Source of the DNA: Thermoproteota archaeon
Lineage (GTDB): Archaea; Korarchaeota; Korarchaeia; Korarchaeales; Korarchaeaceae
Length of the DNA stretch: 64,000 bases
Direction of reading: 5' to 3'
NCBI GenBank assembly: GCA_027491395.1
Contig: JAOZFI010000039.1
Coordinates: 32,001-96,000 of the forward strand
The translations under genes and the position numbers were made by a program. This document shows positions 10,940 through 44,527 of the stretch, piece by piece. The notes below the pieces were generated by a model that saw only the letters and a program-made list of their open reading frames with translations, did not search any database and was not told the origin of the DNA. Position 1 is the first letter of the stretch, and the number at the start of each line of letters is the position of its first letter.

Positions 10940-12628
10940 CTAATGAAGCCTCCTCCTCGTTAAGAATATGGTAATTAACGCTAGGATCACAATGAGCGGA
11001 ACGGCTACGAGTAGAGCATTAACCCCTTCTCCTCCCGTCTCAGTAGTAGTCGTTATTTTAGTGACTGGGATACCGGACGTAGCTGCTCCAGTTTTGGATT
11101 TGGTAGTAGTCGAGGAGCCAGCAGCTCTTGTGGTTTTGGTTGTGGCAGGAGCACTTGAGGTAGCTTTAACCTGTTCACCTTCCAAGACCCTCACTCCCAA
11201 CGACAGATTGGTTTCATATCCCCCACCTTGGGCCATCAGTAGGAGGGTGTGATCCCCTAGGGGTGCGTCAGCAGAAGCCCTGACGGTTACCTCTGTCTTA
11301 AAGGGTGGAACACCATCCTCTGGATCGAAGGAGAGATTTAGGCCTTCGGGCGTTTCCGCTCTCAGATGAACTTTCGACCAGAACTTGCCTCTAGGAATTA
11401 GATTAATTGAAAATGTTGTTGAGCCACCTCTCTTCACGGAGAGCTTGGTTGTCTCAGGCATGAGGAGGAAGTAGTCCTTTAAAACCTCTTTCTTTTCCTC
11501 CACCACTAATTTGACCGAAGCTCCTGAGAGGGAGAAGTACTCTTCGTCGTACCCGACTGGGACTGGAGAGAACTTGAGAGTATATTCACCCAACTCAGCG
11601 TTCTTACCAACCATCACATAAGATTCGAAAAAAGACCCATTGTCCAGAGGATGAACGTCTACGGTCACGCCATCTCCACCGAGTACCTCGCTTTTCACCT
11701 CTAATTTACCTAGGAATGTGCTATCTACAGCGATACGAAAACTGGTGTTCTCACCTGGATGCATGGTTAGAAGTGATTCGGTCATGGCTCTGAGGCTCAC
11801 AGAGGGGCCTGTGAAGTTTATCATGAGGACTGGCGTGTACTCCGGAACATTTCTCTTTTCAGTTAACTCTTTACTATAGAATTTCGCATAATATTGCGCT
11901 TCCTTTCTCAGGAACTCGTAGCTCTTGGCCTCAGCAGCTCCTCCCCCTCTGTAATTCGTGCTAGCTACGACCTCTTCCTCGCGGAAATACCTAGGTGGGT
12001 CTGGAGTTATCAGTATCCCGCAATTGGGCGCCTCTCCCTTCAAAACGCGCCTATAGTAATCAGTGACGTTGAACCTATAATATCCTGTGCTCTTCTGGAA
12101 CTTACCCAAAGTACCTTGATCTAGCAGGGTCTCCTCATGGGTTCCTCCAGCATCCCTCCATCTAGTTCCCTCCAACCTACTGAGCCATGAGACCTCGCTC
12201 TCCCTGAAGCACTCCTCCAGTCCATATATTTTGACGGGTATGCTGTCATAGGGAGTGTAGACATGTAGCTGGAGAATGGCTTCAACTACCTCAGAGCCCG
12301 GGGGTATGCTGCTAAGGTTAAAGTGGAGAAGTATATTCCTCTTATCCTTTACCTTATATATCTGTTTACATTTGATTATTTTATAATTAGGAGGATAACT
12401 GTAATCTATAACTATCTCGCAGTCGTATCTTGAAAGGTACTTGGAAAACCCTATTATCAAATAGTCCTCCAACCCAGCCTTCCAGTTGGATTTATCCTCC
12501 GCAACGTAGGAGTCAGATAGAGCGGGGATCTTCAAGGATGTGTGCTGAGGTTGAGCCGCCAACGGAATCAGGGAAGTGGAGAATACTAGGGAGAACAGCA
12601 GAATGAACCTAAATGAAGGACTGAACAA
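10940..12628 (-). CDS. Surface protein: DNRLRE/CBM96-like domain + Ig-like domains + Thr-rich stalk + C-terminal TM
   Basis: Signal peptide; DSYV, LLHFNLSSIPPGSEVVEAILQL, W..AGG, FNVT, FYSKE; GVPPF Ig-like module; TM followed by RRR. Confidence 0.8.
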   Translation of the reverse strand: MFSPSFRFILLFSLVFSTSLIPLAAQPQHTSLKIPALSDSYVAEDKSNWKAGLEDYLIIGFSKYLSRYDCEIVIDYSYPPNYKIIKCKQIYKVKDKRNILLHFNLSSIPPGSEVVEAILQLHVYTPYDSIPVKIYGLEECFRESEVSWLSRLEGTRWRDAGGTHEETLLDQGTLGKFQKSTGYYRFNVTDYYRRVLKGEAPNCGILITPDPPRYFREEEVVASTNYRGGGAAEAKSYEFLRKEAQYYAKFYSKELTEKRNVPEYTPVLMINFTGPSVSLRAMTESLLTMHPGENTSFRIAVDSTFLGKLEVKSEVLGGDGVTVDVHPLDNGSFFESYVMVGKNAELGEYTLKFSPVPVGYDEEYFSLSGASVKLVVEEKKEVLKDYFLLMPETTKLSVKRGGSTTFSINLIPRGKFWSKVHLRAETPEGLNLSFDPEDGVPPFKTEVTVRASADAPLGDHTLLLMAQGGGYETNLSLGVRVLEGEQVKATSSAPATTKTTRAAGSSTTTKSKTGAATSGIPVTKITTTTETGGEGVNALLVAVPLIVILALITIFLTRRRLH

Positions 12629-37606: not shown

Positions 37607-38427
37607 CTCGATCTCTCCTCCAGTACACCAAGTTCCCTCACCAGCTCATCTGGTATCCTCCATCCAACCGATCCAGCTAACTCCTCCACATGATCTACGC
37701 GGGATGCCTTCGGAATTGCTACAACCATCGGCTTGGATATGAGCCAGTTTATCGCCACCTGAGCTGGGGTCTTTCCCAGCCTAGCAGCTATCACCTTCAG
37801 CTTCTGGGGTGGTCTCTTCGCCAGTCTCCCCCTGTCTAGAGGGCTGTACGCCATGAGGGTTATTCTCTCCCTCTGACAGTAGGGAAGCAAGTCCTCCTCG
37901 GGTTCCCTCACCCTAAGGCTGTACTCCACCTGATTGGTCACCACGTCATTATGCTCCAGCAGTTCCCTAGCTCTCTTCAACAGATCTAGTGAGAAGTTGC
38001 TCACCCCGATGTATCTCACGATGCCCTCGCTAATCAGCTCCTCCATCGCCCTCAGCGTTTCCTCGAGCGGGTAGGATAGATTCGGCCAGTGGATGAGGTA
38101 TATATCGATGTATGTACCGAGCCTCGCAGCGCTGGCCCTAGCTGCCCTCTTCACCGAATCGTACGCTAGGTTGGTCCCCCATACCTTGGTGACGATGGTG
38201 AGGGACTCCCTGTCGAAAGGTTTTATGGCCTCGCCAACCAGTTCCTCAGCCTTTCCCCACCCGTACATCTCCGCCGTGTCTATGAGCGTCATCCCCAGTT
38301 CAATGCCCCTCCTAAGCGCAGCTATTGCTTCCTCCTTGGGAGCTGCTTCTATCTGGTAAGTGCCGAGGCCCACCTTGGGTATCTTAACATCTGTACCGTC
38401 AAGCTCCTCGTATTCCACGGGGATCAC
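37591..38427 (-). CDS. Aldo/keto reductase
   Basis: GLGTY, IDTAEMYG, TK, YLIHWP, IGVSNF, NQVEYS, AYSPL, IPKAS. Confidence 0.95.
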   Translation of the reverse strand: MIPVEYEELDGTDVKIPKVGLGTYQIEAAPKEEAIAALRRGIELGMTLIDTAEMYGWGKAEELVGEAIKPFDRESLTIVTKVWGTNLAYDSVKRAARASAARLGTYIDIYLIHWPNLSYPLEETLRAMEELISEGIVRYIGVSNFSLDLLKRARELLEHNDVVTNQVEYSLRVREPEEDLLPYCQRERITLMAYSPLDRGRLAKRPPQKLKVIAARLGKTPAQVAINWLISKPMVVAIPKASRVDHVEELAGSVGWRIPDELVRELGVLEERSRWPRS

Positions 38428-40003
38428 CCGCCAAAAGCTCCTGAGCTAAAGGAATACCGTTACCATTGAGGTCAAGTTGAAGGAGTCCGGAGGTTTTATA
38501 CCTATCCGCTCCGGCCACTACGACCACTAGGGTATCGCCTTCCAAGCTCACGTGTACGACCTGCCCTCCCTCTATGAGGGAAGCCTTCTCGGCGCCGGAT
38601 AGCAGAGAGGCGGCGATGTTTGAGGGCATGTTACTGTCGGTCGGAGCCTTGTGACCACCCAGCACGATGACCATATCGTAATTGCCGAACTCATCCGTGG
38701 AATTTATCCTTTGAAGGGTAACTCCTGAGGAGTTCGCAGCAGATATGAGGTCCTCGGACGAGAGGTTCCAGTCTATATCGTTTGAGTAGACGGCCACCCT
38801 CCTGACACGGGTGGTCACATTGATCTCGTAAACCTTGTTCCTAGCTCCAGTGAACACGAGGGAGAGGACGCCTGACGCCTCTATCCCGTGGAGGGATGTA
38901 AGGGAGAGCGTGACATTGAAGGGCGGGATGCCGGACTGGGGAGAGAGGGACACGTTCAGCCATTCGGGAGAACCCAAGACCCCAGCGGATACTTCACCGC
39001 TGAAGTTCCCCGTGGGCACGACCCTCAGGGACACATTCCTCCCCAATCCGCCGACTAGATCTACTCGGGAGGGACCCACCACCGAGAAGCCCTTCCTCTC
39101 GAGGACCGTGAGGTTAACCGGAGCTGAGGCCTCCATGACGCCCTCGGCCCTTATGACCACCGTGTACTCCCCTCCGGGAGCGGTGTCCGGAACCTCCAAG
39201 TTGAGGGTGCTGTTGAACGGGGGAAACCCCTGTTGAGGAAAGAACTCGTAGGAGAGAAAGTCAGGACCCTCCAAAGACAGGTTTATCGGTTTTGAGAGGT
39301 GGCCCGTCACGTACACCCTCATGCTTATGTTCTCTCCTTGAGTGACCACCACCTCGGGGGCCTCGAGAACGATGCTCAGCGAGGCGGCCTCATACTCTAT
39401 CGTAAGAACGGGCCCGTTAGATCCACTTACCTCCGAGTAGAACTCATAGTAGCCCTCTTGTCCCTCAGCTATCTTGACTAGGAGCCAGCCACTGCTCTTC
39501 AACTCATTGTCGACGGCAGCTTGGACATAGGACGTCAGATTTATCTCGGCTTGTGGGAAGGAACCAGCTCCTTCGCCCCACTTCTCTATGAGATCTCCTC
39601 CCGGGTTGCTCCAAGGGAGGCCCGATCTCACACTGTTCCAAGTAGTTCCAAATATGTCTAGTTCTCCTCTCACGTCCCAGACCTCAATAGTGGGATTAGA
39701 CGTGTTATATGTGGTCAGCACTAGACTAGCGTTGAGTATCTTGGAATATTGAGGTATGTGCGATCTTATCTCACCTATATCGAACCTTAAAAGAGCTCTA
39801 GCTTCCACGGTGTCGTTGCCTACTGCGGTTCTGGATACTTTGAGGACTTGAGAGCTGGCGTGAGGGGTATCAGGCTCCCAGCTGGCTATGTAACAGTCGA
39901 CGTAGGACCTGACCGTAAGGGAGATACTCGCCTCCATCAATGAGACGGGAGTGAGCAGGAGGACCATCGAAAGGATAGACAGCGATCTAACAGAGACCCT
40001 CAT
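38399..40003 (-). CDS. Surface protein: DNRLRE-like + two Ig-like domains + C-terminal S-layer/CWB2-like module
   Basis: Signal peptide; DCYI, RALLRFD, W.NPGGD, FYSE; GFPPF and GIPPF repeats; VLGGHKAP..VAGADRYKT. Confidence 0.8.
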   Translation of the reverse strand: MRVSVRSLSILSMVLLLTPVSLMEASISLTVRSYVDCYIASWEPDTPHASSQVLKVSRTAVGNDTVEARALLRFDIGEIRSHIPQYSKILNASLVLTTYNTSNPTIEVWDVRGELDIFGTTWNSVRSGLPWSNPGGDLIEKWGEGAGSFPQAEINLTSYVQAAVDNELKSSGWLLVKIAEGQEGYYEFYSEVSGSNGPVLTIEYEAASLSIVLEAPEVVVTQGENISMRVYVTGHLSKPINLSLEGPDFLSYEFFPQQGFPPFNSTLNLEVPDTAPGGEYTVVIRAEGVMEASAPVNLTVLERKGFSVVGPSRVDLVGGLGRNVSLRVVPTGNFSGEVSAGVLGSPEWLNVSLSPQSGIPPFNVTLSLTSLHGIEASGVLSLVFTGARNKVYEINVTTRVRRVAVYSNDIDWNLSSEDLISAANSSGVTLQRINSTDEFGNYDMVIVLGGHKAPTDSNMPSNIAASLLSGAEKASLIEGGQVVHVSLEGDTLVVVVAGADRYKTSGLLQLDLNGNGIPLAQELLAGDPRGIRGA

Positions 40004-40824: not shown

Positions 40825-41118
40825 TCACGGGATCAGCTCCATGAGGATGAGCAGGATTATACCAGCTAGGATAAGCTTCCTACCTTTATATGTGAATATA
40901 TCGCTCGCCCATAGCACCACTCCCAAGGCGATGAGTGTTCCAGCAAGGACCCTCCCTATAGAGATCGCGGACTCCTTCAACACGTTGAGTATGTTCATAA
41001 TGCTCTGAGTCAACTCATTTATCGCACTCTCGAAGCTTGAAAACGGATCTTGGGCCTTGACCACTAGAGGAGTCATTAAGAGCAATACTACAAGAGCTGA
41101 GTAGACGAGCGCCCTCAT
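40825..41118 (-). CDS. Small protein with VirB2/TrbC/CedA1-like pilin architecture
   Basis: Signal peptide ending VKA|QD, an amphipathic helix, then two TM helices joined by a KGRK loop. Confidence 0.55.
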   Translation of the reverse strand: MRALVYSALVVLLLMTPLVVKAQDPFSSFESAINELTQSIMNILNVLKESAISIGRVLAGTLIALGVVLWASDIFTYKGRKLILAGIILLILMELIP

Positions 41119-41179
41119 CGTTCCAACCGAGGGGTTATGGGATAAGGAGGAGAATAAACGCGCTAACGACTGGAAACTT

Positions 41180-41986
41180 TCACGATCCCCTCACCCTGAT
41201 CCCCCACTCCCTTATGCAGGAGAAACCCCTTCTCAACCCTCCATCTCGTATTATGTTCGCCTCCTCGTCGAAGACAACGGCCTTGAAGGCAATAACGACC
41301 TCCTCTCCCGCGAACTCTGTGGCATAGGTGAGCCTGAGGCTTATCCCCTCATCGGTGAGGTTCCTCCTCAGGTACCTCACGAGGGAGGTCAGTTCCTCCC
41401 TCATCTCTTGGGGGGCTGCGGTGACATTCTCCTCACTCGAAAAAGCTTTCCTGACTATTTCTATGGTCCGGTGTCTTAGACCGGTGAGGACCTCCCTGAT
41501 GAGGAAGTAAGCAGTGGGCTGGCAGGCCCCGACATCGAAGTACCTCCTCGCCTTGATGCCGAGTAAATCATCCCTAATCGTTAGCCTCGACGATGCAGCG
41601 ACTTTTATCCCTCCATCCCTGCAGTAACCTCCGAAGGCCTGATCTGAGGAATCGCCCTCTCTTGACTCGTCTATTGAGTAATGAAGATCCCCCGTCAGGG
41701 AGAAACCCTTACTCATCATGTCCTCCCTCAGGAGTTGAACGAACAGACTACCGTTCGGAGGCGGGGGAAGCTCCTCGCAGGCCGTCGAGTTTACTCCTGC
41801 GAGCCACCTATCCACCCATGACCTAGCAAAGATCAGGGATCGAGCTTTGAGCGTATCGGCTTCCGCACTCATCTCATACATCCTCAACTCCCCCATGTAG
41901 AGGAACCAGTCCTCATCGGAGCGCGGCACGTTGACTAAGAAGGAGGCCGTGAGGAGGGCGATAAGGATGAGGACAAGCTCCTTCAT
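41180..41986 (-). CDS. Hypothetical N-terminally anchored protein (268 aa)
   Basis: N-terminal hydrophobic helix, four Cys; ATGA overlap with the upstream ORF. Confidence 0.75.
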   Translation of the reverse strand: MKELVLILIALLTASFLVNVPRSDEDWFLYMGELRMYEMSAEADTLKARSLIFARSWVDRWLAGVNSTACEELPPPPNGSLFVQLLREDMMSKGFSLTGDLHYSIDESREGDSSDQAFGGYCRDGGIKVAASSRLTIRDDLLGIKARRYFDVGACQPTAYFLIREVLTGLRHRTIEIVRKAFSSEENVTAAPQEMREELTSLVRYLRRNLTDEGISLRLTYATEFAGEEVVIAFKAVVFDEEANIIRDGGLRRGFSCIREWGIRVRGS

Positions 41987-42258
41987 GGTGAACCAACCCT
42001 CATCTTCTTAGATGGCGAGGTTCCGGGTATCAGAACGCAGTAATAGATCCCCTTCTCGCCCCCGCACGTGCTTACGAGCTCTCCCTGCCCCGATTGACCA
42101 AGGAGGATCCTATATCCGAGCTCGTTCACCGTCCTCTTAAGATCGCTGCATGCCCTAGCTTTCCACCTCACCTGCCAGCCGAGATGAACTCTAGTCGGGA
42201 TCACCAAGACGTAGGACACGACGATTATTGAGATTAACGCAGCAAGCATCCATTTCAA
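41983..42258 (-). CDS. Hypothetical N-terminally anchored protein (91 aa)
   Basis: TTG start in a TTGA overlap; N-terminal TM helix; three Cys. Confidence 0.65.
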   Translation of the reverse strand: MKWMLAALISIIVVSYVLVIPTRVHLGWQVRWKARACSDLKRTVNELGYRILLGQSGQGELVSTCGGEKGIYYCVLIPGTSPSKKMRVGSP

Positions 42259-42338
42259 CCTAGAGCACCCGCCAAAGCCATCAAGAGTAGGGCCACTAGG
42301 AACATGGTCAATAATGACTCTAAGAGCTCCTCTAGCAT
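42255..42338 (-). CDS. 27-aa single-helix micro-ORF MLEELLESLLTMFLVALLLMALAGALG
   Basis: Not in the ORF track. Exactly fills the gap: the start overlaps the upstream stop (ATGCTAG) and the stop overlaps the downstream TTG (TTGA). Confidence 0.65.
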   Translation of the reverse strand: MLEELLESLLTMFLVALLLMALAGALG

Positions 42339-42538
42339 CCCACGACCCTCCTCAGATAGTCGGAAGCGTCCAAGTCCAGCGAGTCAGCGAGTTTCCTTAA
42401 CTTCCGCTGAGCCTCGACCATTCTAGTACAATCGCGACTCTTAAGGGCGGGGGTGAGGGAGGACAGGGCAAGTAGCACGATCAATAGAAGAGCGATCAGC
42501 GATATAAAGGAGAAAGAAGCGCTTAATCCCTCCTCCAT
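42332..42538 (-). CDS. Hypothetical N-terminally anchored protein (68 aa)
   Basis: MEEGLSASFSFISLIALLLIVLLAL followed by an amphipathic helix; two Cys; overlaps both neighbours. Confidence 0.65.
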   Translation of the reverse strand: MEEGLSASFSFISLIALLLIVLLALSSLTPALKSRDCTRMVEAQRKLRKLADSLDLDASDYLRRVVGC

Positions 42539-42915
42539 GCTCCCGCCCATCCCAAGGATACGTACTGCTCCCGCCAAACGCTGACGAACCTGCCGAAACC
42601 CACAGCTTCACCGTGACACCTGACTTCGAAGGGATATCTGAGGCTGGCAGAGGCGTTCCCCGAGCTCACCCTGACCAAGTGCCCGCTGCAGGAAAAGCTC
42701 ACCTTACACGGGAGGTACACGTAAGTCTCCGAGAGTCCTCCCCCTAGCGAATTGGTTATGGCCAAATCTATGGATCTGATGGCTGTATTCACACAATTCA
42801 CGGATCTCTTCTCATCTAGCGATTTCATGGCCCTGCTGACCGGTCCATTGACGGAGTAAAGTATGAGGGCCAACCCTGCCGCCATTAGGAGGGCCCTCTC
42901 TAGGGAAGCCCTCAT
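42523..42915 (-). CDS. Minor-pilin-like protein (130 aa)
   Basis: MRASLERALLMAAGLALIL helix, an amphipathic helix, then a beta-rich domain with four Cys; ATGA overlap at 42912-42915. Confidence 0.65.
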   Translation of the reverse strand: MRASLERALLMAAGLALILYSVNGPVSRAMKSLDEKRSVNCVNTAIRSIDLAITNSLGGGLSETYVYLPCKVSFSCSGHLVRVSSGNASASLRYPFEVRCHGEAVGFGRFVSVWREQYVSLGWAGAWRRD

Positions 42916-43040
42916 CTCCTCATCCTCCACCACGCCAGTAGGTACGCTGCTGCGGCTGCTATCGGGTAAAGGGAAGGATCGATCATTAGGGAGGCAGCCA
43001 GAGCGGCAGGAAGCAGGACTAAAAGGAATGCTCCTCTCAT
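42912..43040 (-). CDS. 42-aa two-helix micro-ORF MRGAFLLVLLPAALAASLMIDPSLYPIAAAAAYLLAWWRMRR
   Basis: Not in the ORF track. GGAGGT SD upstream; the stop overlaps the next ATG. Confidence 0.7.
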   Translation of the reverse strand: MRGAFLLVLLPAALAASLMIDPSLYPIAAAAAYLLAWWRMRR

Positions 43041-43108: not shown

Positions 43109-44527
43109 TCAGGATGCCGGCCACTTCCTCCTCCTGAACTTGGTGAGGGCGAAATAGGCTACGAGAGCGACCACTATTCCGATTACCAGTCCCCAATACG
43201 GTGAAATCCCTTCACTGGGTGTCGAAAAGCTGACGGCGACAGCAGCAGAGGCGACTGCCACCCCGTAGCTCAACACCGTGACGGTGTAGTTTCCCGGGCT
43301 CACTCCTTTGAACACTATTAGTTGACTGGAGCCAGGATCCAGTGTGACGGAGCTGTGGTCGATCTCCTCTCCCTCCCTGAGCAGGACGATATCAAACGTT
43401 CCAAGTACGCCGCCGACGTTAGTTAGGTTGACCTCTATCGTTCCGTCGGAGGGCGAGGCTGACAGGGAGACTGGGAGAGGCATGACTTGGAATGAGAGCG
43501 AGTGATCGTTATTCGCCCTGTTAACATCCACCCCATCTAAGGGTATAAGAGAGACCGTTAACGTGTGATTCCCGACCGCCAGCTCTAAGGTTGGGATCTC
43601 CACATCGGCGAAGCTCTCTCCCTTGGGAGGTAAGGTATCGAGAAGCTGGGAGTCGATCAGCATGTCGTCCACGTACACGGAGACATTTACTCTGGAGGGA
43701 GATGGACCCTCGTTCATCACCCTGATCTTACCAGAGAGGACCTCGCCCCTCTGAACCCTCTTGGGGATCGAGACCTCCTTGACGAGGACATCGCATGATG
43801 GTCTGACTTGCACCTCGGCTGAGGCCTGGCTGTAAGGCCTGTCCCCCTTCGTTATCAGGGCGGTCAATTTGATGGTCCCAGCTGACAGGGGAGCGAAAGG
43901 GAACTCAGCCATAGATATGGATTTGGGGGGAACGTAGACGCCCTGTGCTCCTATCTCCGTATCGTTAACGAACAGCCTCACTCTTAGATCGAGCGCGTCA
44001 CCCGAGGGGTTCGGGATGTGGACCTTCACGAAGTAGTCCCTTCCTTGGATCATCTCCCTCTCTACATCGATAAACGCCTCGACCAGCGGAATTACAGAGA
44101 ACTTCATCTTATAGGTGTTGTCTTCGGGACGCGGGTCCCCGTATTCCTTGGGCTCCACCGTCACCTTCAGGTCATGCACTCCTACGGTGAGGTTAGATGT
44201 TGGGACTCTCGTAGTGACGGTCGTGTATCCCCCGGACGGAATTGGGATGGATCCCTTGGACACATTACCTATTTCCCAAAACTCCACAACCTTAAGATCC
44301 TCATCCACGTAGACGCTCACCTTGACGATCCCGGAGAAGACCTTGGACTCTTTGTTCCTGATGTAGATAGTGAGAGTGAGGGGCTGTCCTTGCTGCACCT
44401 CTCCGTTAAGGGGCAGTACCGTTATCCTGTCTATAGAGAGGTCCCAGTGCTGCTGGGAGGTAGCATGAGCCAGCGACATCATGAGGAGAGGGATGAGCAG
44501 CAGTAGGATCCCTGACTTAGACGACAT
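43109..44527 (-). CDS. CARDB/Ig-like repeat surface protein with C-terminal TM
   Basis: Signal peptide; DLSI..YIRN..PEDNT and DV.V..VMNEG..ANND repeats; TM followed by RRRK. Confidence 0.82.
   Translation of the reverse strand: MSSKSGILLLLIPLLMMSLAHATSQQHWDLSIDRITVLPLNGEVQQGQPLTLTIYIRNKESKVFSGIVKVSVYVDEDLKVVEFWEIGNVSKGSIPIPSGGYTTVTTRVPTSNLTVGVHDLKVTVEPKEYGDPRPEDNTYKMKFSVIPLVEAFIDVEREMIQGRDYFVKVHIPNPSGDALDLRVRLFVNDTEIGAQGVYVPPKSISMAEFPFAPLSAGTIKLTALITKGDRPYSQASAEVQVRPSCDVLVKEVSIPKRVQRGEVLSGKIRVMNEGPSPSRVNVSVYVDDMLIDSQLLDTLPPKGESFADVEIPTLELAVGNHTLTVSLIPLDGVDVNRANNDHSLSFQVMPLPVSLSASPSDGTIEVNLTNVGGVLGTFDIVLLREGEEIDHSSVTLDPGSSQLIVFKGVSPGNYTVTVLSYGVAVASAAVAVSFSTPSEGISPYWGLVIGIVVALVAYFALTKFRRRKWPAS

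Follow-up and report, generated by a model that had tools for sequence, protein, structure and literature searches.

A conserved block of small membrane protein genes in a korarchaeal lineage, a probable accessory module of a split type IV filament system

To which machine do seven small membrane-associated proteins belong when none of them matches a known family? This question is raised by a stretch of 64,000 nucleotides (nt), hereafter the window, from a Thermoproteota archaeon of the family Korarchaeaceae (GenBank assembly GCA_027491395.1, contig JAOZFI010000039.1, positions 32,001 to 96,000). Its minus strand carries, between positions 40825 and 44527 of the window, a block of eight open reading frames (ORFs) designated, from 5′ to 3′, p472, p42, p130, p68, p27, p91, p268 and p97. 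Pfam and NCBIfam scans of nine ORFs recovered no family for any of the seven small proteins. It is argued here, with a probability of about 0.7, that the block from p472 to p97 is the accessory module, made up of minor pilins and membrane adaptors, of an archaeal type IV filament system that is lineage-specific, Tad/Epd-like and split across the genome. Under this proposal, seven unnamed and lineage-restricted ORFs would be assigned to a concrete machine and three or four scattered loci of this genome would be parts of a single type IV filament system. A comparison of gene arrangements within a genus would thereby recover the motor for a pilin cluster that stands alone in this genome.

Gene order and linkage to a filament motor in relatives

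The block was compared across 13 loci of three genera, namely the window and 12 fetched relatives, which were picked around matches to p268 and whose ORFs were listed. The p268 search itself found matches in 20 of 41 genomes, the window's own included, covering 17 of the 20 other genomes of its genus (here g1) and two other genera of the family. ORFs like p130, p68, p27, p91 and p268 occurred in identical order in 13/13 loci, with p68, p27 and p91 assigned from position and architecture only in the two loci outside g1. The p27 counterpart, an ORF of 24-36 amino acids (aa), showed the same architecture at the same position in all 13. It was also observed that p42 was present in 11 of the 13 loci, all belonging to g1, and that a p97-like ORF was found in 12, the thirteenth contig stopping 257 nt past p268. 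Since the same order recurs in 13 loci of three genera, the run of ORFs is more than chance, and the synteny across relatives on which the initial annotation had made its interpretation depend was thus found.

In several relatives, the module was found beside the genes of a type IV filament motor. In the arrangement designated A, observed in six g1 loci (L014, L015, L017, L018, L021 and L025), the series comprises a surface protein with immunoglobulin-like (Ig) or PKD domains, a protein of ~228 aa, a T2SSE ATPase (Pfam, E 1e-10), a membrane protein of ~303 aa, a small pilin encoded on the opposite strand and then the p42-p130-p68-p27-p91-p268-p97-like genes. Coordinates add two genomes (G005 and G007), which brings arrangement A to 8 congeneric genomes. 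In a locus of another genus (L023, genus g3), the module abuts a convergent operon encoding a T2SSE ATPase (2e-12), two short membrane proteins, an A24 peptidase (8.5e-11) and a small pilin, together with a weak CbiA/MinD-like match (E 0.0014, under the cut-off); G048 and G051 carry the module near the motor in the same manner as L023. Altogether, genes of the T2SSE/TadC type adjoin the module in 9 of the 13 loci. Given arrangement A in g1 and the L023 layout in g3, a physical link between the module and the machinery of type IV filaments exists in two genera whose layouts differ.

The genome of the window follows another arrangement, designated B and shared with the fetched loci of G002, G003, G004 and G020, in which the module begins with p472 beside unrelated genes and the motor block lies elsewhere. 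In G006, G008, G010, G011 and G012, matches to p130 and to the TadC-like protein were found on separate contigs. Genome-wide scans located T2SSE matches on contigs C13, C62, C45, C54 and C43, DUF87/HerA matches on C45, C8, C43, C57 and C48, and the only T2SSF-like match (16.1 bits) on C62, with none of them on the contig of the window (C28). The initial annotation, which had described the cluster as subunits of an envelope machine whose ATPase and platform are encoded outside the window, is therefore supported on both counts, since a FlaI/PilB-family ATPase and a diverged TadC-like protein were identified on C62 and their orthologues adjoin the module in relatives.

Contig C62 encodes an 854-aa Ig-like protein, a 264-aa protein, the ATPase, which is 56% identical to that of arrangement A, and the membrane protein, which is 35% identical to its counterpart there. 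The ATPase matched T2SSE with 47.4 bits, above the cut-off, and its nearest solved relatives in the PDB were FlaI (1.6e-14) and the GspE of A. fulgidus (7.6e-14), with VirB11 (4e-7) and CpaF (1e-6) behind. In the family of the C62 membrane protein, T2SSF matches were obtained for 5 of 7 members, the best with an E of 7.7e-5 and all under the cut-off of 25.2 bits, and the TadC-like profile retrieved nothing real from the PDB sequences. A Peptidase_A24 match above the cut-off (31.5 bits) was found on C31. From these sequences, the system is predicted to comprise a FlaI/PilB-family ATPase and a diverged TadC-like platform preceded by a large Ig-like surface protein (C62), a Flp-like pilin (C34) and an A24 peptidase (C31).

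In three genomes (G002:C6, G008:C132 and G020:C51; arrangement B), the small pilin gene lies ~19 kilobases (kb) from the TadC-like gene on one contig. Because of this spacing, contigs C34 and C62 of the genome studied here may be chromosomal neighbours. A second T2SSE locus of the same genome (G000:C13:268-6164; L030) encodes a 524-aa ATPase (Pfam, 6.5e-21) accompanied by a 133-aa protein with an N-terminal helix, a 382-aa protein with a weak Laminin_G_3 match (E 4.4e-4, under the cut-off) and a 924-aa CarboxypepD_reg protein.

The pilin-like protein p130 and the small pilin

The protein that connects the block most directly with the filament is p130 (42523..42915, minus strand, ATG start). 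Its high-confidence model, with a predicted local distance difference test (pLDDT) of 89.3, has the shape of a lollipop, with a long N-terminal helix and a head formed by a six-strand sheet, and displays the features of the type IV pilin fold, in which an N-terminal hydrophobic helix extends as a long α1 that packs against a head of antiparallel β-strands. In structural comparison, 10 of the top 14 rows were pilins or pseudopilins, the nearest being PilA5, EpsI and GspI; the Foldseek search of the same model against the PDB returned nothing, with a best E of 0.18. The protein carries a conserved cysteine (C41) and an N-glycosylation sequon (N87).

The small pilin of this genome, encoded on C34, is an orthologue of that found in arrangement A and is 50-95% identical to its counterparts in the arrangement-B relatives (72-95% in 4 of 5). 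It comprises 77 aa, with a basic leader ending in K-G, followed by V-T-G-T-L-E-Q and a hydrophobic helix, and has no globular head. No Pfam match was obtained for it, the Flp and TadE models being among those unmatched. When the p130 family was compared with the small-pilin family in hhalign, the two aligned with a probability of 89.2% (E 2.2e-6) over 63 columns, in a register that places Met1 of p130 on the residue after K-G and Glu6 of p130 on the invariant Glu12 of the small pilin, the sixth position after K-G. This Glu6 was kept in the 11 sequences of genus g1 and was absent from the two of other genera (alignment A1). Apart from p130 and the small pilin, a scan of the whole genome for the N-terminal motif recovered a single membrane ORF, which is unrelated. 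The profile alignment shows p130 to be a homologue of the small pilin of its own lineage and, together with the modelled fold, makes it a type IV pilin-like protein.

It was in the start of p130 that the most unusual feature of the system was flagged. The M-x-x-[S/T]-x-E start is preceded by no in-frame ATG, GTG or TTG in 9 of 13 loci, so p130 cannot carry a leader in those loci for want of an upstream start codon; in the window, the possible extensions amount to 5-6 mostly acidic residues only. A cleavable class III leader, which is present in the C34 small pilin (basic and ending in K-G), is lacking in p130, and for this reason p130 was classed as pilin-like and not as a canonical prepilin. 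In every genome in which the start is constrained, p130 begins exactly at the equivalent of the post-cleavage +1 residue of the small pilin. A similar situation was observed for p268, which starts with M-[K/R]-E and has no upstream start in 10 of 11 loci.

Part of the small pilins shares this property. Of the 6 arrangement-A loci, 4 encode a small pilin, presumably the major one, whose first residue corresponds to the mature +1 position (M-Q-Q-T-I-E or M-I-N-T-M-E), and no in-frame start lies upstream of its gene (L014:5166-5402, L015:8526-8789, L017:4978-5262 and L018:5451-5720), whereas the orthologues in the window's own genome and in the arrangement-B relatives carry a basic leader ending in K-G or R-G. 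The supposition that arrangement-A genomes with leaderless pilins are devoid of the A24 peptidase was rejected, the peptidase being present in 5 of 5. Leader cleavage is usually taken as universal in the type IV filament superfamily. We tentatively raise the possibility, to which we give less than even odds, that some or all of the pilins from which this lineage builds a type IV filament can do without a prepilin peptidase. If p130 and the leaderless small pilins are real fibre subunits, they would call into question whether prepilin processing is obligatory, and, were it true that leaderless proteins enter the fibre, leader cleavage would be dispensable for extraction from the membrane and for polymerisation. 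A literature search by phrase, with "leaderless pilin" and variant wording, returned no match, which is no proof of absence from print.

The p130 family extends across the class, being found in 32 of 40 species genomes. Within g1, the p130 profile matched 17 of 20 genomes and the TadC-like profile 19 of 20, and the four genomes without the one or the other are all 70-78% complete. The p130 matches of G043, G044, G045 and G047 (genera g2 and g5) contain one in-frame TGA or TAG each, and a small-pilin match (G003:C43:61878-62102) contains one in-frame TAG; split ORFs, pseudogenes or assembly errors are possible in both cases.

The other members of the block

The six ORFs from p42 to p268 are chained by overlaps of 4, 16, 7, 4 and 4 nt (p42 to p130, p130 to p68, p68 to p27, p27 to p91 and p91 to p268), in which the junctions ATGA, ATGCTAG, TTGA and ATGA were seen, and a gap of 61 nt separates p268 from p97. 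A Kyte-Doolittle scan placed a hydrophobic segment at the start of all the small ORFs, and cysteines were counted in p130 (4), p68 (2), p91 (3) and p268 (4). In these respects the initial annotation proved accurate: it had reported six minus-strand ORFs of 42, 130, 68, 27, 91 and 268 aa chained by overlapping junctions, a hydrophobic N-terminus in each and four cysteine-bearing proteins. A scan of the locus for promoters and terminators performed no better than on shuffled sequences; the models were bacterial and are not applicable to archaea.

The largest subunit of the module, p268 (41180..41986, minus strand), has an N-terminal transmembrane (TM) helix followed by two tandem α+β modules, as seen in a confident model with a pLDDT of 91.5 and a predicted TM-score (pTM) of 0.80. 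It gave weak pilin and GspK matches. Its cysteines C70, C122, C155 and C257 are conserved in 11-13 of the 13 loci, and two sequons (N66 and N187) are present. The nearest look-alikes in the ESM Atlas, which serve as leads only, were unnamed archaeal clusters (0.92-0.93) and a DUF7286 cluster (0.84). The protein is a candidate tip or adhesin component of the filament. Assignment of p268 to the "pita-bread" peptidases was dismissed, because the rows found with Foldseek in the PDB reached a TM-score of only about 0.2 and reflected a shared order of secondary structures. A protein of 1340 aa (P0033) gave 13 matches to the p268 profile, all over region 39-88, the long helix past the TM segment; possibly the helix is shared with a protein of the repeat or coiled-coil type.

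The remaining proteins are smaller. The p91 gene (41983..42258, minus strand) begins with TTG within a TTGA junction and encodes an N-terminal TM helix and a small cysteine-containing domain, in which Cys65 and Cys74 are kept in 11 of 13 sequences (alignment A7). The p68 gene (42332..42538, minus strand, ATG start) encodes an N-terminal TM helix with a short helical tail and is conserved in several g1 loci, as found with tblastn (alignment A8). A single-helix peptide of 27 aa with an acidic N-terminus corresponds to p27 (42255..42338, minus strand). The 42-aa p42 (42912..43040, minus strand) has two hydrophobic segments and is probably a membrane-resident accessory subunit. The conserved cysteines and N-glycosylation sequons in p130, p91 and p268 are consistent with an extracellular location.

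The initial annotation had considered several of these proteins as candidate minor type IV pilins, and at least p130 is pilin-like, by fold and by hhalign; p68, p91, p268 and p97 showed no detectable homology to the small pilin. The hhalign probabilities against the small pilin were 0.3% for p268, 0.4% for p91, 2.7% for p68 and 0.3% for p97, none of them significant, and the comparison of p268 with p130 gave no signal. The p68 alignment, although non-significant at 2.7%, adopted the same register, and p68 is a possible small pilin-like subunit. Complex prediction with p130 (27-130), p91 (28-91) and the partner p268 (24-268) gave 0.82, 0.83 and 0.82, the controls with the partner replaced gave 0.01 and 0.00, and the control with p130 replaced gave 0.84. 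As the verdict of this run, controls included, was no answer, the scores speak neither for nor against binding.

In the arrangement of this genome, the block opens with p472 (43109..44527, minus strand), a surface protein with an N-terminal signal-like segment, CARDB/Ig-like repeats (CARDB match in Pfam, E 1e-13) and a C-terminal TM anchor, its hydrophobic segments spanning residues 1-25 and 414-465. It also lies 5′ of p42 in L016, L019 and L024. By likeness to the proteins treated in section 14 of Makarova 2016, p472 may be an S-layer-like sheath or an adhesin.

All seven families are narrow, at 16 to 25 database hits per family, and unnamed. The p130 profile matched 23 proteins among 5.8 billion and the p268 profile 16 representatives among 1.84 billion, while the p97 profile matched 25 database proteins, none with a functional name of the pilin type. 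The few source names given for the database relatives were "Thermoproteota archaeon" and "Candidatus Korarchaeum sp.".

Filament module, stator or DNA-transfer apparatus

In the proposed mechanism, the ATPase and the platform would pull the small pilin from the membrane and polymerise it. The p130 protein, and probably p68, p27, p91 and p268, would be held in the membrane by their N-terminal helices and build the tip or priming complex from which the filament grows, p268 being outermost. Meanwhile, p42 and p97 would remain in the membrane as adaptors, and p472, anchored at the surface, would either escort the filament through the envelope or serve in adhesion. What the analysis establishes is the order of the genes, their proximity to the motor genes in relatives, the pilin fold of p130 and its homology to the small pilin; for the other six proteins, we infer the roles and the formation of a complex.

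Several points weigh against this assignment. The cleavable class III leader that defines canonical pilins is absent from p130, as read from its sequence, and p130 is alone among the seven in having detectable pilin homology. The identity of the platform is weakened by a T2SSF match that stays under the Pfam cut-off. Moreover, the module is unlinked to the motor in the genome studied here, so the module-motor link rests on orthology with relatives.

On another reading, the module would lie outside the fibre and serve the same machine as a subcomplex for assembly or alignment, or as a stator. Anchored in the membrane and comparable to the bacterial PilMNOP or GspCLM or to the stator proteins ArlF/ArlG of the archaellum, it would fasten the motor to the envelope and to p472. 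ArlF and ArlG combine an N-terminal TM helix with a pilin- or archaellin-like β domain. The linkage to the motor would be expected of such a subcomplex as much as of a filament module, and membrane residence would suit the two-TM proteins p42 and p97, the large anchored surface protein at the head of the block and the want of a cleavable leader in p130 and p268; five of the seven proteins, in addition, show no homology to the small pilin. Nevertheless, Met1 and Glu6 of p130 stand in register with the predicted mature N-terminus and the conserved glutamate of the small pilin, which is the geometry of entry into a filament, and the folds nearest to p130 are filament or tip subunits (PilA5, EpsI and GspI) and not proteins of the PilN/PilO type. 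A stator role, the main rival to the filament module, is therefore regarded as unlikely, though with an appreciable chance of being correct.

A different machine was suggested by the last gene of the module, p97 (40825..41118, minus strand), which the initial annotation had taken for a VirB2/CedA1-like pilin. The architecture on which that proposal relied is present, since p97 has a signal peptide, an amphipathic helix and two TM helices, the Kyte-Doolittle scan delineating a signal-like hydrophobic segment at the N-terminus and two hydrophobic helices towards the C-terminus. If p97 were a pilin of the VirB2/TrbC/CedA1/TedC kind, the block would belong to a conjugation-like apparatus for DNA transfer or import, with a VirB4-like ATPase encoded elsewhere. 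Sub-threshold TrbC matches were obtained in 3 of 12 members of the p97 family (best E 0.015), and a TrbC/VirB2 cluster ranked 15 (0.84) among the ESM Atlas look-alikes, which are leads only and were headed by unnamed archaeal clusters (0.87-0.89). However, the p97 of the window had no TrbC match in Pfam at E up to 2 and was absent from the genome-wide TrbC matches at E up to 10. The one match inspected in a relative, which scored 15.7 bits where the cut-off is 27.9, covers the signal peptide and TM1, and members without a signal peptide show none. The architecture is kept across the p97 family, except that the signal peptide is missing from six arrangement-A orthologues, whose first residue falls where the mature N-terminus is predicted (alignment A2); in that arrangement, the p97 gene overlaps the 3′ end of p268. 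Although the variable signal peptide parallels the processed TedC and the unprocessed CedA1, as these are presented by Beltran 2023, the p97 profile retrieved from the PDB sequences only designed helical proteins and transporters and no pilin, none of its 25 database relatives bears such a name, and hhalign of p97 against the TadC-like family gave no signal.

The gene neighbourhood bears on the same question. In the portions of Beltran 2023 that define Ced and Ted loci, these consist of a VirB2-like pilin, a VirB6-like protein of 7 TM segments and a VirB4-like ATPase; in 13 of 13 loci, however, no VirB4-like gene and no VirB6/CedA-like gene with 6-7 TM segments was found beside the module, while T2SSE/TadC-type neighbours occurred in 9. 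An ATPase exists in this genome on C43 (G000:C43:26675-28429; L042:799-2553), a protein of 584 aa with two N-terminal TM segments, matches to HerA/DUF87 (5.9e-17) and AAA_10 (33.8 bits) and a TraG P-loop, which together constitute a CedB/VirB4-like architecture, but it has no 6-7-TM neighbour within ±5 kb. The identification of p97 as a VirB2/CedA1-like pilin is accordingly unsupported, and a conjugation-type apparatus is considered very improbable because of the absent TrbC and PDB matches and the want of a VirB4/VirB6 partner in 13 loci. We know of no Pfam model for CedA1 or TedC, and a distant kinship with p97 is possible. Within the filament system, p97 is probably a membrane-embedded accessory protein.

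That the block is an unrelated envelope complex, for instance one associated with the S-layer or with transport, and no more than a neighbour of type IV filament genes in some genomes, would agree with the absence of family assignments for the small proteins and with the position of the block between housekeeping-looking genes in this genome, but is scarcely credible given that the adjacency recurs in two genera with differing arrangements, that p130 is homologous to the system's own pilin and that both are leaderless in 4 arrangement-A loci.

The filament system proposed here follows the pattern known for archaeal type IV pili, which evolve fast, and refines that pattern without overturning it. 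The published precedent was drawn from section 14 of Makarova 2016 and from parts 2-3 of the Results of Sivabalasarma and Albers 2026. Those sections describe, for clade 4 of the Thermoproteales (subclades 4E and 4G; Makarova, Koonin and Albers 2016; reclassified by Sivabalasarma and Albers 2026), type IV pili in which ATPase and TadC have diverged and which come with an S-layer-like protein bearing a C-terminal TM segment, many small cysteine-rich putative minor pilins, extra membrane proteins and split loci. The present system resembles them in its diverged ATPase and TadC-like protein, its C-terminally anchored S-layer-like protein, its small cysteine-containing putative minor pilins, its extra small membrane proteins and the separation of machinery and pilin loci; it differs in that the seven proteins have no Pfam or NCBIfam match and belong to families confined to one small class. 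Pilin-like proteins without the class III motif are mentioned in the same sections for system 2 (Makarova 2016; Sivabalasarma and Albers 2026). The main texts of both papers contain no system for the present lineage, the term "Korarchae" occurring in them only in tree legends and in a remark on the absence of the archaellum, while their supplementary tables may list orthologues.

A comparable resemblance exists to the Epd pilus of Methanococcus maripaludis and to the bacterial Tad/Flp pilus, which likewise have a very small headless major pilin with a glycine-containing leader and a glutamate a few residues past the cut, separate genes for minor pilins or pseudopilins, an ATPase of the FlaI/CpaF type and a platform of the TadC type. 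In contrast to these, the system of g1 has a single short platform gene, the conserved glutamate lies at +6 of the predicted mature pilin, the Flp and TadE Pfam models are unmatched, p130 is leaderless wherever its start is constrained and the small pilin is so in at least four relatives. The module shows no sequence homology to the priming complexes GspH-I-J-K of the type II secretion system (T2SS) and FimU-PilVWXE of the type IVa pilus (T4aP), and its fold scores are middling; p27 and p68, furthermore, are essentially headless. With the Ced/Ted and VirB2/TrbC systems (Beltran et al. 2023), p97 shares the bare architecture of a hydrophobic helix pair, whether a Sec signal peptide precedes it or not; unlike those systems, the module has no supported sequence match to them and no VirB4, VirB6 or CedA partner in the 13 loci, its steady partner being the T2SSE/TadC machine.

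Downstream of the block, the window encodes a secreted protein of 534 aa with a DNRLRE/CBM96 domain (38399-40003; NCBIfam, 7.6e-18), whose gene shares 17 nt with the end of the 265-aa ORF before it. This protein is encoded 3′ of p97 in the arrangement-B relatives and is absent from arrangement A, for which reason it probably lies outside the module. A distant paralogous stretch of it was detected with tblastn at positions 11225-12433 of the window, with 22-27% identity.

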